From: Candidatus Omnitrophota bacterium
Lineage (GTDB): Bacteria; Omnitrophota; Gorgyraeia; Duberdicusellales; 4484-171
Length of the DNA: 64,000 bases
Assembly: GCA_003154195.1 (NCBI GenBank)
Contig: PMCS01000005.1
Coordinates: 9,449 to 73,448, forward strand
Direction: 5' to 3'
Shown here: positions 4,951 to 35,785 of the stretch, in pieces
How positions within the stretch are numbered: the first letter of the stretch is position 1
How the letters are laid out: the number at the start of each line of letters is the position of its first letter
Position numbers and translations under genes: made by a program
Notes under the pieces: model-generated
What the model was told of the DNA's origin: nothing
Databases searched by the model: none
The model's input: only the letters and a program-made list of their open reading frames with translations

Positions 4951-5249
4951 TGGTTTATTTTTTATTATTTTTTTTACTCTTTCAAATACTTAATATTAAT
5001 CAACAAAATATGAGTATTAATATATAACATATTTTTTAGGGAAAAACAAGGAAACGGGATATTTCTTTTTTTTGCTGCGCAAAAAAATAAATATCGTCCA
5101 TATTTAACCCAAAAAATGCCTGCACCCCTTGGTAGGGATGACTACTTCATAACCCAAAGAAAACCAATGAGTTAGGTATAAAACATTACGCAACGAAATT
5201 TTTTGGGTTAACTGGAGGATTAAGGGTGTCGGGAAGGGCTAAATTAAAG

Positions 5250-15599: not shown

Positions 15600-16763
15600 T
15601 TACCCTTTCGGACTGTAGTAAAAAAATGTTTCGTTCTTGTAATTACGCAACGTAACCCCATCGGGAGACATAGAAACCAGATAATTAGGGCTTATGGGAA
15701 TTTTTCCTTTACCGTCAATACCATCAACGACATACGTCGGTATGCACAACCCGCCGGTATGGCCTCTCATTTTTTCTAAAATCTCGATACCGCGCCAGAC
15801 GCTGGTCCGAAAATGCCAGGCACCCACCACCGGATCGCATTGATACATATAATATGGCCTTACCCTTATCGCCTGTAACTTCCGGCACAATTCGATCATG
15901 ACCTGTGGATCGTCGTTAACGCCGCGCAACAATACCGACTGGTTACTTATCGGTATGCCGCACCTCTGAAGCTTACCGCAAGCGGCAATTGAATCGGGAT
16001 TTACCTCCCGGGGATGATTAAACTGCACATTAACCCAAAGATTATGATATTTCTCAAGGACTTTACATAGATTGTCGTCGATACGCTCAGGCATTACCAC
16101 CGGCGACCTTGTCCCGATGCGCACAACTTCCACGTTGGTACGCCGCACCACCGACGATAAAATATAATCCAGCCTTTCGGTCGGCAAGGTAAGCGGATCG
16201 CCGCCGGATATAATAACTTCCCGTATTTGCGGATTATCCTGAACATAAGTTAACGCCAAATCGATATCTTTCAATGTCGGTTCGGCAAGCTTAGTATGCC
16301 AAAGCCTCTTCCTTGTACAATGACGGCAATACATAAAGCATTTTCCCGTCACCAGAAGCAAAACTCTGTCGGGATAACGATGCACCAAGCACGGCACGGG
16401 AGAAGTTTTTTCTTCCGACAACGGGTCTATCCGTTCATGCTCTTCCTGCCTTATTTCTTCCGGCGAAGGCACACATTGCATTCGTATTGGGTCTTTAGTA
16501 TCGGCATAATCTTTGATCAGTGAAAAATAATGAGGGGTAATCCGCATATGGTATGTTTTAGCGACTTGCCTTAGGTTGGTTTTGTCTTCTTCGCTTAAAG
16601 ACAGGTAACGAGACAGGTCCTCGACACTCCTGAGGGAATTCTTATACGCGGTATGCCAATTTTGGCAAGAAGTAATCACTAAAACCGCATTGTCACTGCC
16701 GGATTCTTCGATGCTACCGCCAGGCTCCTCGTCAACCGAGCCGACATTTTTTTTATTTTCCAT
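15600..16763 (-). CDS. kamA: KamA-family radical SAM lysine 2,3-aminomutase
   Basis: CxxxCxxC cluster in LLLVTGKCFMYCRHCTRKRLW, ISGGDPLTL, and KamA-type C-terminal region. SD AAGGAGG precedes the ATG. Confidence 0.75.
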   Translation of the reverse strand: MENKKNVGSVDEEPGGSIEESGSDNAVLVITSCQNWHTAYKNSLRSVEDLSRYLSLSEEDKTNLRQVAKTYHMRITPHYFSLIKDYADTKDPIRMQCVPSPEEIRQEEHERIDPLSEEKTSPVPCLVHRYPDRVLLLVTGKCFMYCRHCTRKRLWHTKLAEPTLKDIDLALTYVQDNPQIREVIISGGDPLTLPTERLDYILSSVVRRTNVEVVRIGTRSPVVMPERIDDNLCKVLEKYHNLWVNVQFNHPREVNPDSIAACGKLQRCGIPISNQSVLLRGVNDDPQVMIELCRKLQAIRVRPYYMYQCDPVVGAWHFRTSVWRGIEILEKMRGHTGGLCIPTYVVDGIDGKGKIPISPNYLVSMSPDGVTLRNYKNETFFYYSPKG

Positions 16764-17082
16764 TTAGCTATCATCCTCCTTTATTTTTTACTTCATAAAC
16801 AATAAAACATTTTATCCGCTTCGCGGATAATAAAATGGCATGCCGATTAAAAAATATTTTTGAATAACCGATTGTTTTTTCTTTTCTCTTGATCATCCGC
16901 CTAACCGGAAAAATTGCTGCCTGCTCGCAGCGCTCAGTCCGTCTCGCTCGCCTCTCGGCGAAGCTGATGGCCTTCGCCTTGCCGAGGCTGACGCGAATCA
17001 AAACGAACCGTTAGCGCAGGCGTGACATATTTTTTCGGTTAGGGTGATTTTTATTTTTTGCTTCGCAAAAAATATAAAGCTA

Positions 17083-18303: not shown

Positions 18304-19305
18304 TTAGAAAGAAAAAATCTTATTAAAATAACTTGTATAAAACATAACAATCCTATAGCCGATGTAAGCGGCGATGAATATATAAAGAAAAACCGGCACA
18401 ACCGTAACCATTACCGCTACGGCGACGGCATTTTCTTTTTCGCACAGGGACGCCATAGACCCAAGCATTTTATCGATACTGCCGCTCTTTTCTCCCGCCG
18501 TAATCATCCCGATCATATTCGCGCTAAACAGGCGGGTCGCGCTGAATGCTTCGCTTATGCCGCCTCCCCGCTCGATAACCGCTAACCCCCGGAGAATCGA
18601 TTTTTCCACAATACTATTGCCGCAAGCGCCGGCCGCAATCTTCCACCCCTCGATTATGGTTACCCCTGAAGCGCACAGGCATTCCAACGCGCGTACAAAA
18701 CGCGTGGCGACAAACCGGCGCGTTAACTTTCCCCATAACGGAACATTAACGCTAAACAAATCATAAATATTTTTAAACCGGGCCTGCTTAAAAACTTTGC
18801 GTATCCCGAATAACAAAAAAACTATACCATACAGCGGTAATAAAACTTTTAACAACTCGCGCAAATACCCGGCTAAGCCGCAAGTTACCAATGACGTTAT
18901 CGGCAAAACAAAAACGGCAATGTGCAGAAGCAGCACCGGATACGCCAAACCGAAAACAAGGGACTGAAACATCGAGTAGTCTTTTTCAAGATAATCGGCG
19001 ATACGGTTTAACCCATCAGCCAGCCTTCCGGCGGTTTCGCTGTAACGAACGATACTTATATGCCACGCGGGAGAAAAATCCGGCAAAGCGGAAAGCCCGT
19101 CCGCCAGAGTCCCGCCACGCGAGATATGGCGCTTAAGCCGCGCGGCAATATCCTTGATGCGTCCGTTTCCGTGGCCTTGTAAAATATCCATCGCGGCAAC
19201 GACATCAACGCCGGAAATCACCAGCGTCGCCAATTCGCGGTAAAAAACCATTAATATTTTTGTGCGGTTTAAAAACATCGCTTTTTGTTTTATCGTCAAG
19301 GGCAA
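18304..19305 (-). CDS. Type II secretion system F / PilC-family inner-membrane platform protein (two T2SSF repeats)
   Basis: Two halves each with GxTxxEG-type motif (SGVDVVAAMDIL...; ASGVTIIEGWKIAAGACGN...ERGGGISEAF) and TM segments. Confidence 0.65.
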   Translation of the reverse strand: MPLTIKQKAMFLNRTKILMVFYRELATLVISGVDVVAAMDILQGHGNGRIKDIAARLKRHISRGGTLADGLSALPDFSPAWHISIVRYSETAGRLADGLNRIADYLEKDYSMFQSLVFGLAYPVLLLHIAVFVLPITSLVTCGLAGYLRELLKVLLPLYGIVFLLFGIRKVFKQARFKNIYDLFSVNVPLWGKLTRRFVATRFVRALECLCASGVTIIEGWKIAAGACGNSIVEKSILRGLAVIERGGGISEAFSATRLFSANMIGMITAGEKSGSIDKMLGSMASLCEKENAVAVAVMVTVVPVFLYIFIAAYIGYRIVMFYTSYFNKIFSF

Positions 19306-19429: not shown

Positions 19430-20104
19430 TCAATTGCCGAGAGGGCCGAATGTTCCGCCGAAATCCGCGCCAAGGTCGTCGACGTGCGGCAAATTATTGT
19501 TCTGCAAGGACTCCCGGCAAAACTTTTGAACCAGATCCTTATCTCCCCGCGTAAGCAAAAATTCAATCCTCCCCGCGATCTTCTCCTGCTCTCTTTCGAA
19601 AACAGCATCGATAAGCAAAATAAATACCTTGCCGCAATTGCTAATCGACTTTAAGATTTCGTCTGATGAACCCACTGTTAAATCAGGAGGAGAAGGAACG
19701 ATTATCGTCCTCAAAAATACGCTTAACGCGGTTACGTAAGCGCTTAACACAATGTTGCCGATTTCCTTGAGCGCGGACATACCTAGCTCCGTAAGCGTCG
19801 TTCCTTCCGATAGATGGTAGCCGGGATAGCAGATACTCATAAACTTAGCGGCACTGTCGCTATCAAAGGTTAAAAGAAGTTTGCCGTTTAAACCGGAGAG
19901 GATATCGCACTGCACGCTTACAAAACTATCATGCTTGCCGCGATAAGCGCGTAAAAGATTATCGTCGTGAAAAGGTAAAATCGAAGGCATTAAAACCTTG
20001 ATTTCTTTATTAAGCATTTTCGTAAGCGCGTTTGTGCTGTAGTTAGCGGCAACGCTTCCTATTTCTTTCAGAATATCTAATTCCATCATGCCCCAATCTT
20101 CCAT
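19430..20104 (-). CDS. CheC-like CheY-P phosphatase family protein (CheC/CheX/FliY)
   Basis: ELDILKEIGSVAANYSTNALTKMLNKEI and second repeat LKEIGNIVLSAYVTALS. The likely start is the internal ATG at 20104, preceded by a GGGGGA SD. Confidence 0.6.
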   Translation of the reverse strand: MEDWGMMELDILKEIGSVAANYSTNALTKMLNKEIKVLMPSILPFHDDNLLRAYRGKHDSFVSVQCDILSGLNGKLLLTFDSDSAAKFMSICYPGYHLSEGTTLTELGMSALKEIGNIVLSAYVTALSVFLRTIIVPSPPDLTVGSSDEILKSISNCGKVFILLIDAVFEREQEKIAGRIEFLLTRGDKDLVQKFCRESLQNNNLPHVDDLGADFGGTFGPLGN

Positions 20105-20329
20105 CTTAATCCCCCTATATCTTGACAAAGGTTCTGTAAAAAACGAACCACAGAGTTCACAGAGAAATCGGCAAATTTACCGAATTAGAAAAACCGATTG
20201 TTTTTATTTTACCTCTATCCGGCGAAACAAACAAGCAGAAAATTTTTGCAGGAGAAAACGGTCATTAATAAAAAATGCCTCGACACAGCTGCGAGGCAAG
20301 ATTTTTTTACGATAGCTTGAAGCTAACCG

Positions 20330-20706: not shown

Positions 20707-20733
20707 ACCGGTTCACCTCCTTTAATGAGCAGA

Positions 20734-20765
20734 TGATTTATGAAATTTTACCAAATTTCATAAAT
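20734..20765. promoter_or_regulatory. Perfect 14-4-14 inverted repeat (GATTTATGAAATTT-TACC-AAATTTCATAAATC) in GYD gene 5' region; candidate operator
   Basis: Perfect palindrome 28-60 nt upstream of the ATG at 20706 on the coding strand. A second perfect palindrome GTTCCGCCTGCAGGCGGAAC lies at 20770-20790. Confidence 0.4.
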
Positions 20766-21026
20766 CATAGTTCCGCCTGCAGGCGGAACGTCTGCGAATT
20801 AAACCCCGCCTTTTTGGCGCTATCGGTAAATTAAACTTTTCTTTATAAGAATAACCGACCTACAATAACAGCAAACCGCTTTCCCACCTAAGCGCCCAGC
20901 CAAAAAGGCGGGGTATCTACCTCTTATGCCATTATTATAAAAATCATCCTATAATACTGCCCTTGCCACATTATTTCAAGATAAAAACCGCCGATCCCAC
21001 GCGTAAAATTTTCCGGATTTTTACGA

Positions 21027-21944
21027 TTAACGATTAATTGCCTTAAGCAGTTCAACGTTTGTCGGGTATTTCTGCAACAATTCAATCAGCCTCTGCATCG
21101 CTTCCACCGGGCTCAGTTCCGCCAGGCCGCGGCGCAAAAGCTCCAGTTTCTTAAATTCTTCCACGGAGAATAACAGCTCGGCTTTACGCGTATTACTTTT
21201 GGGTATATCAATCGCGGGAAATATCCGCCGCGCTCCCAGCTCTTTGGATAAAACAATTTCCATATTGCCCGTTCCCTTGAATTCTTCAAAGATAACTTCA
21301 TCCATGCGGCTGCCGGTATCGACCAGAATCGTCGCCAGGATGGCGATTGAACCTCCCCCCTGGATATTCCTTGCCGCGCCAAAGATCCGGCGCGGTATTT
21401 CCAACGCCCCGGCGTCCACCCCGCCGGAAAGCGTCCTGCCGCTGGCGCGGCTCTGGGAATTATGCACCCGCGCCAGGCGGGTAAGGGAATCGATTAAAAT
21501 CATCACGTCTTTTCCTTCCGCCGCTTCTTTGAAAGCTTCATTCATCGCTTTATCCGCGACCGCCACATGATTATCGTAAGCCTGGTCCATCGACGACCAA
21601 TATACTGTGGCATTAACCCCGCGCCGGAAATCAGTCACCTCTTCCGGACGTTCATCGATCAACAAACAATAAATCTTCATCTCCGGACAGCTTTTAGCCG
21701 TCGCGTGGCAGATATGCTTGAGAAAAGTCGTCTTGCCTAAGCCAGGAGAAGAAACAATCAGGCCGCGCTGGCCTTTACCAATAGGACAAATCAAATCCAT
21801 CGCGCGGACAGTTAATTCTTTGCTCCCGTTTTCAAGGATTATGCGCGGATAGGGGTCGATTGCCGTTCCGGAAAGAAATTGTTTCTCCTGGGGAGTAGCG
21901 GCGCGACGCGGCGCGTAGGAAAATAAAGGGTATTTGGAAATCAT
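21027..21944 (-). CDS. rho: Transcription termination factor Rho homolog lacking the N-terminal RNA-binding (OB/CSD) domain
   Basis: PIGKGQRGLIVSSPGLGKTT Walker A, LIDERPEEV, Q/R-loop region and DSLTRLARV. Only ~60 aa precede the P-loop, against ~180 in E. coli Rho. The upstream 320 bp are AT-rich with stops in all frames. Confidence 0.75.
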   Translation of the reverse strand: MISKYPLFSYAPRRAATPQEKQFLSGTAIDPYPRIILENGSKELTVRAMDLICPIGKGQRGLIVSSPGLGKTTFLKHICHATAKSCPEMKIYCLLIDERPEEVTDFRRGVNATVYWSSMDQAYDNHVAVADKAMNEAFKEAAEGKDVMILIDSLTRLARVHNSQSRASGRTLSGGVDAGALEIPRRIFGAARNIQGGGSIAILATILVDTGSRMDEVIFEEFKGTGNMEIVLSKELGARRIFPAIDIPKSNTRKAELLFSVEEFKKLELLRRGLAELSPVEAMQRLIELLQKYPTNVELLKAINR

Positions 21945-22265
21945 GGTTTTATTTTTGTAACGAGAGGGGAAACCGGTAAATTTCGCTATCTCGCGGCTTT
22001 TACTTTCTGCTTAAAACATTATAGCAAAATATAAGCGTCAAGGGAAAGGAAAACATAAAATATTTAAGCGCACTTTAAAAAACTATTTGCGGGGGCAAGT
22101 ATTTATGCTATAATTCTTTCGGTTTTCATATTTATTTTTGCTGCGCAGAAAATAAATATTGTCCGCTTCGCGGATAAAAAATAATAAGACTAACCCGGAA
22201 AATTTTCGCCTTTGCCTAAAAAAACCGGGACTATTAATTTAAATTGTTCTTAAAGTTGAAACTAT

Positions 22266-22342
22266 TCCCTGGTAGCTCAGTTGGTATGAGCAGCTGACTG
22301 TTAATCAGCGGGCCGCAGGTTCGAGCCCTGCCCAGGGAGCCA
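22266..22342 (+). tRNA. tRNA-Asn (anticodon GTT)
   Basis: 7-bp acceptor stem tccctgg/ccaggga, D-arm gctcagttggtatgagc, anticodon stem gctga/tcagc with loop ctGTTaa, T-arm gcaggttcgagccctgc, discriminator g, encoded CCA. Confidence 0.85.
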
Positions 22343-22349
22343 GTATTCA

Positions 22350-22385
22350 TAAAAAACCCACCATTTTATTGGTGGGTTTTTTGTT
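22350..22385 (+). terminator. Rho-independent terminator after tRNA-Asn
   Basis: aaaaacccaccattttattggtgggtttttt: a 9-bp stem followed by a T-run. Confidence 0.6.
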
Positions 22386-22427
22386 TTGGTTGATATAATT
22401 TATCGTAGATTGCCGGCGTAAAAATCG

Positions 22428-23009
22428 CTAAGCGAGAACAATCGCTTTACTTACCTTTTCCGCTTCTTTTTTCCCGCAAAGTTTTTCCACAATGCTCAGG
22501 GCGAATTCTATCGATGTCCCCGCGCCGCGGCTGGTAATAAGATTGCCGTCAACCACCACATTTCGCGCCTGGAATTTAGTTTCACTCCCGAACGCGTCCT
22601 CCATGCCGGGAAAACAAGTGGCCGTCTTTCCTTTTAATATACCGGTAGGCGCTAAAACAACTGCCGGCGAGGCGCAGATCGCCGCGATAACCTTGCCACT
22701 TTTGTTCATATCGACAATTACGGTTTTCAACGCGGATGAAGCGGCAAGATTTTTCGCGCCCGCCCCGCCTCCGGGAAGGACTAAGGCGTCAAAATTCAAA
22801 TCCGTCTCATTAAACTTCTTATCGGCAATGACATTGACGCCACGGCTGCTCTTTACTTTTATATCGGCCAATCCGGCAACCGTCACCTCAATTTGCGCCC
22901 GGCGCAGGATATCGATCGGCGCCATCGCCTCGATTTCTTCAAATCCGTCAGCAAGTATGACCAGTGCTTTTTTTGGCATAGTATTTTTAAAGTTACAAAA
23001 ATCAGTCAA
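22428..23009 (-). CDS. DJ-1/PfpI (ThiJ/YajL) family protein
   Basis: ALVLPGGGAGAKNL...VIAAICASPAVVLA (nucleophile-elbow Cys)...ITSRGAGTSIEFALSIV. Confidence 0.8.
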   Translation of the reverse strand: MTDFCNFKNTMPKKALVILADGFEEIEAMAPIDILRRAQIEVTVAGLADIKVKSSRGVNVIADKKFNETDLNFDALVLPGGGAGAKNLAASSALKTVIVDMNKSGKVIAAICASPAVVLAPTGILKGKTATCFPGMEDAFGSETKFQARNVVVDGNLITSRGAGTSIEFALSIVEKLCGKKEAEKVSKAIVLA

Positions 23010-23894: not shown

Positions 23895-24025
23895 GTTAAA
23901 CTGGGTTAGGGTAAAGATGAGGAAGCCAGTATGGGTTATGGCTAAGGTTAAGGCTGAAAATTTGTATCAGCCATGGCCCTTGCCCTTACCCAAACCGGCC
24001 GCTTAACCCTGGCCATAGCCTAATC
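23895..24025. repeat. Palindromic intergenic repeat element family 1, copy 2
   Basis: ctgggttagggtaaagatgaggaagccagtatgggttatggctaaggttaaggctgaaaatttgtatcagcc...acccaaaccggccgcttaaccctggcc. Confidence 0.7.
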
Positions 24026-25780: not shown

Positions 25781-25979
25781 ATATTTTTTTGCTCCGCAAA
25801 AAAAATATCCGTTATCCGCTTCGCGGATGAAAAACAAAATTCCGGTATTTCTTGCGCAATATTTTGCTTAACCGGATAAACCAAAATTCTGGGGATAATC
25901 CAATTAAAAGTTTTTATTGTTTTATTGCTTCCCTCTCCCTTCATCATTCGGTCTTCGGTCATCGGTTATTCTAATGCGG

Positions 25980-26288: not shown

Positions 26289-26425
26289 ATTATTAAACTG
26301 GGTCAGGGTAATGGCAAGGATGCCAGTATGGGTTATGGCTAAGGTTAAGGCTGTAAATTCGTATCAGCCCTAGCCTTTACCTTCACCCAAACCGGCTTCG
26401 TAACCTTAACCGTAACCATATATTT
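26289..26425. repeat. Palindromic intergenic repeat element family 1, copy 3
   Basis: ~85% identical to copy 2 over ~125 bp. Confidence 0.7.
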
Positions 26426-27544: not shown

Positions 27545-27712
27545 GTTGACGCGGTGCTAGGTTAGGGCAATGGTAAAGAAGCCTGTATAGACTATGGCCA
27601 AGTAAAGGCTAAAAAATTGTTTTAAGCCCTTACCTTTACTCATACCGGCTTCCTCACCCTAACCTTAACCGATTACTATTACCGGCTTCCTAACCCTGAC
27701 CTTAGCCTCTTA
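27545..27712. repeat. Palindromic intergenic repeat element family 1, divergent copy 4
   Basis: ggttagggcaatggtaaagaagcctgtatagactatggcc...accggcttcctcaccctaaccttaacc...accggcttcctaaccctgacc. Confidence 0.55.
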
Positions 27713-29519: not shown

Positions 29520-29722
29520 AGGATAGGGTTAGGAAGCCGGTTTGATAAATACTGGGCTAAGGTAAGGGTTACGAGGCCGGTTTGGGCTAAGGTTATGGTT
29601 CGGGTTTAAATCAATATTTTTAGCCCTTGCCTTAACCCTAACCCATACTGGCATCATGGCCCTTGCCCTAACCGTTTTTTAATCCATACCGGCATCGTAA
29701 CCCTTACCTTAACCCGGTATTT
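29520..29722. repeat. Palindromic intergenic repeat element family 1, compound/inverted copy 5
   Basis: Contains arms in both orientations (gggttaggaagccggtttg and gcccttgccttaaccctaacccatactggcatcatggcccttgccctaacc). Confidence 0.6.
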
Positions 29723-35619: not shown

Positions 35620-35785
35620 CTTGGTTAGGGCAAGGGTAATGATGCCGGTATGGGCTAAAGACTTGGCTAGGCAAGGGCCATGATGCCAGTATGGGTTAGG
35701 GTTAGGGCTGTAAATTTGTATTAGCCCTGACCTTTGCCTTTACCCAAACGGGCTTCTTAACCCTGGCCTTTACCAATCTTTTTTC
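35620..35785. repeat. Palindromic intergenic repeat element family 1, copy 6 (with duplicated left arm)
   Basis: ggttagggcaagggtaatgatgccggtatgggctaaag + ggcaagggccatgatgccagtatgggttagggttagggctgtaaatttgtattagccctgacctttgcctttacccaaacgggcttcttaaccctggcc. Confidence 0.7.

Follow-up and report, generated by a model that had tools for sequence, protein, structure and literature searches.

Within a 64,000-nucleotide stretch of contig PMCS01000005.1 from a Candidatus Omnitrophota bacterium (assembly GCA_003154195.1; the whole stretch is called the window below, and positions are counted from its first letter), a complete open reading frame (ORF) on the minus strand at 21027-21944, with its ATG at 21944 and its stop at 21027, encodes a 305-residue relative of Rho (P0001). 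A divergent tRNA-Asn(GTT) gene on the plus strand (22266-22342) bounds its upstream region and leaves no room there for an exon or gene encoding an N-terminal domain (NTD). A preliminary description of this DNA had proposed that the protein lacks the NTD of canonical Rho, either because the lineage uses an NTD-less Rho or because the gene is truncated at its 5' end.

Gene structure and domain content

Residues 19-302 of the window protein align to positions 129-412 of the 413-position NCBIfam Rho model NF006886 at 368 bits, above that model's curated whole-protein cut-off for canonical Rho (315), and its alignment to TIGR00767 covers profile positions 131-414 of 415 at 350 bits, below the corresponding cut-off (509). 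The generic ATPase domain PF00006 was the sole domain returned by a Pfam search of the 305-residue protein, which matched neither Rho_N (PF07498) nor Rho_RNA_bind (PF07497). All solved Rho chains align to the protein from their residue ~150 of ~420 onward, and in the alignment with E. coli Rho the conserved block starts at E. coli residue ~122, with the Walker A lysine K71 corresponding to K184. Because the profile, Pfam, PDB and E. coli alignments all begin past the NTD, the ~110-120 residues that are absent by comparison with E. coli Rho make up that domain in its entirety, helix bundle and OB fold included. The loss of both elements, as originally proposed, is thereby borne out, and alignment to the family profiles sets the boundary at profile position ~129. 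The preliminary description had counted ~60 residues before Walker A; it was right about the shortness of this segment, but the figure is slightly low, the actual one being ~65-70. What precedes the motor domain (minus strand, as are all protein features below) is a vestigial tail, residues 1-11 (MISKYPLFSYA; 21912-21944), with a predicted local distance difference test score (pLDDT) below 50, followed by residues 12-45 (PRRAATPQEKQFLSGTAIDPYPRIILENGSKELT; 21810-21911), a family-conserved block that corresponds by alignment to the linker between the NTD and the C-terminal domain (CTD) of E. coli Rho (~residues 122-158). AlphaFold monomer models have a pLDDT of 80.6 for the window protein and 84.8 for a second model; the best PDB matches of the window model are Rho chains, with a template modelling score of 0.82 when normalised by the query and ~0.6 by the target, covering their C-terminal two thirds.

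The DNA upstream is closed to translation. In the 321 bp between the ATG and the tRNA-Asn gene each of the three minus-strand frames is interrupted by stops, the gene's own frame being closed 22 codons ahead of the ATG, and the GC content is 32.7% compared with 45.5% for the window, so that the AT-rich, non-coding character first ascribed to them is confirmed. When E. coli and Omnitrophota NTDs were used as tblastn queries, no Rho NTD was found in the window or in 205 kb of loci carrying related short rho genes. A split Rho with an adjacent NTD or cold-shock-domain gene was therefore rejected; the sole cold-shock gene in the related loci is an unlinked CspA-like gene 1.3 kb downstream in one of them (L011).

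Nor has the missing domain been lost in assembly. The identical 305-residue protein occurs on 16 contigs from NCBI (metagenome-assembled genome (MAG) GCA_003154645.1), ENA and JGI assemblies, and 8 independent assemblies from these three sources share, but for one single-nucleotide polymorphism, the same DNA between the tRNA and the start codon. The ORF is full length, free of internal stops and has all motor residues intact. In a homolog search of 5.8 billion proteins, the best 120 matches, from which the family is described below, are all 283-358 residues long and carry PF00006 only. Since 8 assemblies agree and the 120 nearest homologs are equally short, loss of the NTD by 5' truncation or by a collapsed assembly, the second of the two explanations first offered, is refuted, and the full-length orthologs that would have spoken for it are not among these 120.

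A family of ATPase-only Rho proteins and its canonical counterpart

The 120 homologs are 65-78% identical to the window protein, and their source labels include Omnitrophota, the PVC group, Nitrospirota/Thermodesulfovibrionia and Nitrospira MAG proteins. Members score at least 438 bits against at most 306 bits for full-length representatives; among the representatives of a library clustered at 50% identity, a few short ones fall at 337-389 bits, and full-length Rho proteins follow from ~306 bits down. In a neighbour-joining tree of 70 sequences over 273 CTD columns, 25 family members and two short representatives (P0132 and P0133) form an NTD-less clade supported by 199 of 200 bootstrap replicates, while canonical Omnitrophota Rho proteins group separately with L018 (196 of 200). 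The short clade sits on a long branch: the window protein is 48.7% identical to E. coli Rho, as against 67% for canonical Omnitrophota Rho, and over the same columns the ATPase domains of the short family and of canonical Omnitrophota Rho are 49-54% identical (53.8% for the window protein). The clade spans the phylum labels Omnitrophota, Nitrospirota and Planctomycetales. These data show that the short family is monophyletic and distinct from canonical Omnitrophota Rho, and that the window gene is an intact member of a conserved family consisting of the linker and the RecA-type ATPase (motor) domain only.

The residues on which the motor depends were counted in an alignment of 118 family members with E. 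coli Rho. Walker A, or P-loop (SSPGLGKTT, 21726-21752), has K71 and the following Thr invariant in all 118, as are the catalytic Glu and the Arg valve (equivalents of E211 and R212) within D97-E98-R99 (21648-21656) of the LIDERPEEV segment, D152 (E. coli D265) of Walker B (MILIDS, 21486-21503) and the Arg finger R253 (E. coli R366; codon CGT, 21186-21188). Equivalents of K184, T185, E211, R212, D265 and R366 are thus without exception in the family. The Q-loop of the secondary (channel) RNA-binding site (SQSRASGRTLSGGV, 21417-21458) is a low-pLDDT loop whose R170, at the position of K283, is Arg in 115 of 118 members, and the R-loop (TGSRMD, 21300-21317) has R213 at the position of K326, with Arg in 72 of 118, the window protein among them. 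Judged against canonical Rho, the window protein therefore has Walker A and B, catalytic Glu, Arg valve and Arg finger, with Arg at both the Q-loop and R-loop positions; the OB fold (PF07497) and helix bundle (PF07498) are missing from the protein and from the closed upstream DNA alike. Members without the R-loop Arg (for example P0040, P0050, P0073 and P0101, with TGSAMD) belong mostly to a Nitrospirota-labelled subclade that includes P0025, which suggests that channel RNA binding may be altered there, the ATPase residues being intact.

In most members the N-terminus is a low-complexity tail, of which MSSYGSNSRRGQSRPQQRSNVPARR is an example. Its median length is 23 residues, its composition 16% Arg, 15% Ser, 11% Pro, 9% Asn and 8% Gln, with 3.8% Asp plus Glu, and its mean net charge +4.3. 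In most members this Arg-rich tail replaces the NTD, and it is predicted to be disordered, residues 1-23 of P0050 having a pLDDT below 50. With 12 residues before the conserved PRR block, the tail of the window protein is among the family's shortest. Translated in frame, the leader adjoining its ATG (minus strand, 21945-21971) reads FPSRYKNKT, to which the coding basic tail of the nearest relatives, YPNRYNNNRNN, can be aligned; at the DNA level, too, the in-frame leader (…FPSRYKNKT-M) matches their coding tail (MNNYPNRYNNNRNN…). Because it is in frame and aligned to the basic tail of relatives, the leader is former coding tail: the ancestral start codon has apparently been lost, and translation now begins at an internal ATG. 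The locus shows no truncation other than this start-codon shift, which has removed ~19 tail residues and no domain.

ATPase-only representatives also lie outside the core family (P0139 and P0232, 365 residues each; P0150, 328 residues; P0132, 325 residues; P0133, 301 residues). P0139 has a basic tail of ~80 residues, very rich in Arg, Asn, Asp and Lys; the basic tails of P0132, P0139 and P0150 are similar to or longer than those of the family, and P0232 has the same ATPase-only layout over its 365 residues. As such representatives fall outside the core family, the design of a motor plus a basic tail occurs in more than one lineage. P0290 was set aside as an unrelated 764-residue Rho on the basis of its gene neighbourhood. 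A scan of genome contigs with a universal peptide (MDEVIFEE) gave, among the matches listed, mostly canonical Rho proteins of assorted phyla and one short-family locus (L017), and a metagenome contig scan seeded with P-loop peptides recovered no family member, the best identity being 59%.

Canonical Rho is itself widespread and highly conserved in Omnitrophota. A profile built from four canonical Omnitrophota seeds (L020, L028, L042 and L078) matched at least 120 three-domain Rho proteins of 415-477 residues, many labelled Omnitrophota and 78-100% identical to the profile's first sequence, and every canonical Omnitrophota locus with flanking sequence has at least a portion of one and the same housekeeping block, polA-glgA-coaE-rho-rpmE-prfA-prmC-murA. 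One MAG, GCA_024231215.1, carries both forms: the short P0025 on JAAEQR010000195.1 (506,687 bp) and the canonical, 418-residue P0321 on JAAEQR010000142.1 (497,756 bp). The two loci have GC contents of 39.0 and 39.3% and a tetranucleotide correlation of 0.976, and the two ATPase domains are 48.7% identical. P0321 is clearly of the Omnitrophota type (94% identical to an Omnitrophota protein) and P0025 clusters with proteins labelled Nitrospirota/Thermodesulfovibrionia, a discord that suggests either that the short gene has moved horizontally from one phylum to another or that the taxonomy labels of MAGs are inconsistent. A comparison of the short and canonical match lists revealed no further genome with both forms.

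The short gene is single and, unlike its canonical counterpart, has different neighbours in every lineage examined: DJ-1, tRNA-Asn, GYD and CheC genes in the window, gltBD at L009, a peptidase M23 gene at L010, a histidine kinase at L011, and a response regulator and tadA at L101. Signalling genes adjoin it at a few loci. In the nearest relatives (L101:5605-6975, and also L102 and L103) a CheY-like single-domain response regulator lies 30 bp upstream of the short rho and is probably co-transcribed with it; at L011:4794-7091 the histidine kinase is directly upstream; and in the window the CheC gene (19430-20128) is two genes downstream. One 319-residue member (62% identical; L187:7908-8867) is found at the extreme end of an IMG/VR provirus call, by terminase-like and holin-like genes, and is most likely a host gene flanking a prophage.

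Promoter, repeats and other flanking elements

Upstream of the window gene, a candidate extended -10 element (TGCTATAAT; minus strand, 22018-22026) was read from the sequence and is invariant in 9 sequences. A TTGACG lies 12 nt upstream of it, too close for a -35 element, and a strict sigma-70 -35/-10 scan reported no promoter in the upstream region; the extended -10 is thus an assignment that we infer from the DNA ourselves. The palindromic module that the preliminary description had placed upstream of the gene is present at 22128-22184. It is non-coding and composite, comprising an 11-bp AT-rich inverted repeat around CTGCGCAG and then a hairpin, TCCGC-TTC-GCGGA. The module is dispersed and intergenic, with further copies at 16781-16837 and 25781-25837 and partial ones at 5069, 19331 and 29237; its 13-mer has 3 exact copies where 0.08 would be expected. 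Most of the copies closely precede the start of a minus-strand gene (radical-SAM at 16763, T2SS-F at 19305, dnaX at ~25780), and the module is probably a promoter- or operator-associated element, or one resembling repetitive extragenic palindromes, and is not specific to rho. Apart from the tRNA, no Rfam family was found in the intergenic regions.

Beyond the tRNA-Asn gene, one ENA assembly (L002:1-330) differs wholly from the DJ-1 side of the window (22343-22430), the DNA from the tRNA to rho being identical; the tRNA gene is possibly a synteny breakpoint between strains, perhaps an integration site, or else an assembly junction. The intergenic stretch downstream of rho, up to the start of the GYD-domain gene with its strong Shine-Dalgarno sequence, holds at 20733-20789 a perfect inverted repeat of 16 nt, its arms 4 nt apart (ATGATTTATGAAATTT / AAATTTCATAAATCAT), beside a perfect GC-rich palindrome (GTTCCGCCTG/CAGGCGGAAC); the pair resembles an operator combined with a terminator. 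A second dispersed repeat of ~37 nt (TTACCCAAACCGGC...TAACCCTAACCTTAACC) occurs at 23986-24022, 26383-26419, 27636-27709, 29639-29716 and 35740-35776, sometimes as tandem pairs, inside 100-140-nt repeats (families D4, D13, D2 and D6), with one copy between recR and dnaX.

Relation to known Rho forms and proposed function

With canonical Rho of the E. coli type (TIGR00767 / NF006886; PDB 1PVO, 3ICE, 5JJI) the window protein shares the linker and the RecA-type ATPase, including Walker A and B, catalytic Glu, Arg valve, Arg finger, Q-loop and, in this copy, the R-loop. It differs in having no equivalents of residues 1-~121, and hence no primary (rut, YC-dinucleotide) site, in the position of its gene outside the coaE-rho-rpmE-prfA block, and in belonging to a separate, faster-evolving clade. 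Shorter forms of Rho have been described before. In the survey by Moreira et al. (2024; PMC11347177), Rho proteins are divided into Types 1-4, of which Type 4 lacks the helix bundle and retains the OB domain, as does 'Group B' (D'Heygere et al. 2013, as cited in PMC11347177); the PVC group often has such second copies, for which hetero-hexamers have been suggested. Like the window protein on our reading, Type 4, Group B and NCBIfam NF041509 ('Rho, short form (paralog_Rho2)') are extra, shorter paralogs beside a full-length Rho, as is P0025 in GCA_024231215.1, and they keep the catalytic residues; they are seen as ancient duplicates. These forms lack the helix bundle only, whereas the window protein lacks the OB fold as well: in NF041509 the OB fold of canonical Rho corresponds to positions ~17-75, and the window protein aligns to model positions 76-359 only, at 316 bits where the cut-off is 628, and lacks the PF07497 that the Type 4-like representatives P0136, P0149 and P0189 do show. 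The ATPase-only family is in this one step beyond the known short forms of Rho. The survey treats proteins with a single Rho domain as 'Rho-like', outside 'functional Rho', and only in its supplement (PMC11347177); a Rho-type ATPase without an RNA-binding domain, as that term is defined there, is what the window protein is. A literature search found no paper describing an ATPase-only Rho family. The Rho proteins of M. tuberculosis, M. luteus and Bacteroides have Arg-rich or disordered N-terminal insertions that, like the tail of the family, are of low complexity and on the RNA-entry side. In those proteins, however, the disordered region is added to an intact NTD; here it replaces the NTD, with only ~23 residues (12 in the window protein).

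The explanation we favour, if only somewhat above an even chance, is that the window gene encodes an accessory Rho paralog without a primary RNA-binding site, a ring-shaped RNA translocase that would load independently of rut beside a housekeeping Rho. Paralogy is observed for one family member and is quite probable for the window protein. The CTD of Rho holds the motifs for hexamer cohesion, ATPase activity and translocation (review PMC12360218), and because the window protein carries this domain it would be expected to form a Rho-like hexameric ring. Such a ring might translocate 5'->3' in an RNA-dependent manner, and would be unable to recognise YC-rich rut sites. By analogy with the Arg-rich regions that make the Rho proteins of M. 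tuberculosis and M. luteus bind RNA more tightly (PMC11347177), RNA could be captured non-specifically by six basic tails at the entry face, where the NTDs would otherwise sit; it might instead be handed over by another factor, with NusG, RNA polymerase and canonical Rho subunits as candidates. Either way, the RNA would then be threaded into the conserved channel site. For the window protein, nearly without a tail, a partner seems necessary. The outcome would be a second, rut-independent Rho activity alongside housekeeping Rho, and not the main terminator. A wider proposal remains tentative and falls well short of an even chance: that the Arg-tailed, ATPase-only family is a functional second system for termination or RNA remodelling, acting as a rut-independent translocase recruited through its basic tails, NusG or RNA polymerase, or as a tuner within mixed hexamers, and amounts to an undescribed two-Rho division of labour in Omnitrophota, Nitrospirota and their relatives.

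Several observations weigh against an accessory translocase. Of the 115 members tallied, 43 have Ala, Asn or Cys in place of the basic residue of the R-loop, and since K326 of E. coli Rho matters for RNA binding in the channel, its loss in about a third of the family sits poorly with an RNA motor. The window protein, with its 12 N-terminal residues, is nearly devoid of a basic tail, so that capture of RNA by tails would not be the whole story here. Removal of the first 27 residues of E. coli Rho abolishes its RNA binding (PMC11347177), and a Rho without the primary site may for this reason load RNA poorly on its own. The leader of the window gene has no Shine-Dalgarno sequence, and that the protein assembles into hexamers, hydrolyses ATP, depends on RNA or acts on transcription at all is a prediction. 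On the genomic side, the coexistence of both forms is seen in one MAG, GCA_024231215.1, and binning is no proof of a shared genome. A canonical Rho for the window's own genome, taken as GCA_003154645.1, was not found among the retrieved canonical loci, whose tetranucleotide composition correlates with that of the window at no more than 0.83, compared with at least 0.91 internally; P0343, P0358, P0308, P0465 and P0424 were considered and rejected for this role, as they belong to other assemblies with unmatched composition.

The main rival is that the short protein is a regulatory subunit, entering mixed hexamers with canonical Rho that would then have fewer primary sites and a lowered or retuned affinity for rut, so that termination is modulated genome-wide, for example under particular signals. 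The presence of both forms in one genome, the retention of the ring-forming domain with every catalytic residue, and the signalling genes that adjoin short rho (the CheY-like regulator at L101-L103 and the histidine kinase at L011) are all consistent with this, and hetero-hexamers are raised for second, shorter Rho copies by Moreira et al. (PMC11347177). We nevertheless think it rather improbable: the ATPase domains encoded in the same MAG are 48.7% identical and separated by a long branch, lower than compatible interfaces would predict, and a tail kept Arg-rich in most members points to contacts with RNA made in its own right. It is unlikely that the lineage has instead given up the primary RNA-binding domain and relies for termination on an NTD-less Rho alone. 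No Rho NTD is encoded in the 64-kb window or the 205 kb of related loci, and no canonical Rho could be assigned to GCA_003154645.1, as such a lineage would predict. Yet canonical Rho is near-universal and 80-94% conserved across Omnitrophota MAGs, in its housekeeping block, one MAG holds both forms, and a single clade across phylum labels fits an accessory or transferred gene, not an ortholog truncated in situ. Figures from the survey point the same way, for among 2730 reference genomes a Rho-type ATPase was found in 2446, which equals the 2730-284 genomes with a functional Rho (PMC11347177), and from this we infer that an ATPase-only protein was never the sole Rho in those genomes. Of the original suggestion that the lineage uses an NTD-less Rho, then, a real, conserved and apparently active gene is upheld; with canonical Rho widespread in Omnitrophota, both forms in one MAG and the short clade separate, it is probably not the lineage's termination factor.

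Two further readings are less likely still. A Rho-derived ATPase that is no longer an RNA motor and has been re-purposed for protein export in the manner of FliI/SctN, for DNA, or for a defence or phage function could claim the distant kinship of Rho to FliI/type III secretion and F1 ATPases (FliI, SctN and F1 beta belong to the same ring ATPase superfamily, PF00006), the third of members without the R-loop basic residue, the homolog at the edge of a prophage call and the T2SS-F/CheC cluster downstream in the window. We regard this as very unlikely, because the window protein scores 350-368 bits with the Rho models and no more than 94 bits with the FliI/SctN models (cut-offs ~380-750), its Q-loop, Arg valve and Arg finger are Rho-specific and invariant, in a context of Q-loop and R-loop that those ATPases lack, and the neighbours of the gene are not conserved. 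PADLOC and PHROG models returned only P-loop-level matches of at most 23 bits, with no PHROG assigned, and Rho occurs in only 18 of 2.9 million viral contigs; a defence-system or phage origin was rejected accordingly. That the gene is decaying or artefactual, a pseudogene from which a frameshift or collapsed assembly removed the NTD, we find scarcely credible. The ~19 tail codons lost relative to the nearest relatives and the leader without a Shine-Dalgarno sequence would fit decay, but 8 assemblies from three sources agree on the locus, the full-length ORF has intact motor residues and no internal stop, homologs at 65-78% identity share its architecture, and the opposite-strand tRNA gene closes off the upstream side.

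Textbook accounts have Rho depend on the primary site in its NTD to find rut sites and to trigger closure of the ring. A widespread family, under purifying selection, that has kept every motor residue and discarded the primary site is therefore a natural experiment on the bare Rho motor. It raises the questions of how such a motor takes up RNA, whether NusG or canonical subunits stand in for the primary site, and whether a short Arg-rich tail is sufficient. Surveys set such proteins aside as non-functional and 'Rho-like', while annotation pipelines name them 'transcription termination factor Rho'; under the plain label the difference disappears, and conclusions drawn about termination in uncultured phyla could go astray. 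Because the window protein is most likely an accessory paralog, it is not proof of a lineage that terminates without rut recognition. It is the product of a real, ordinary-looking gene for an unusual and essentially uncharacterised variant of Rho, and a motor-only Rho of this kind merits biochemistry.

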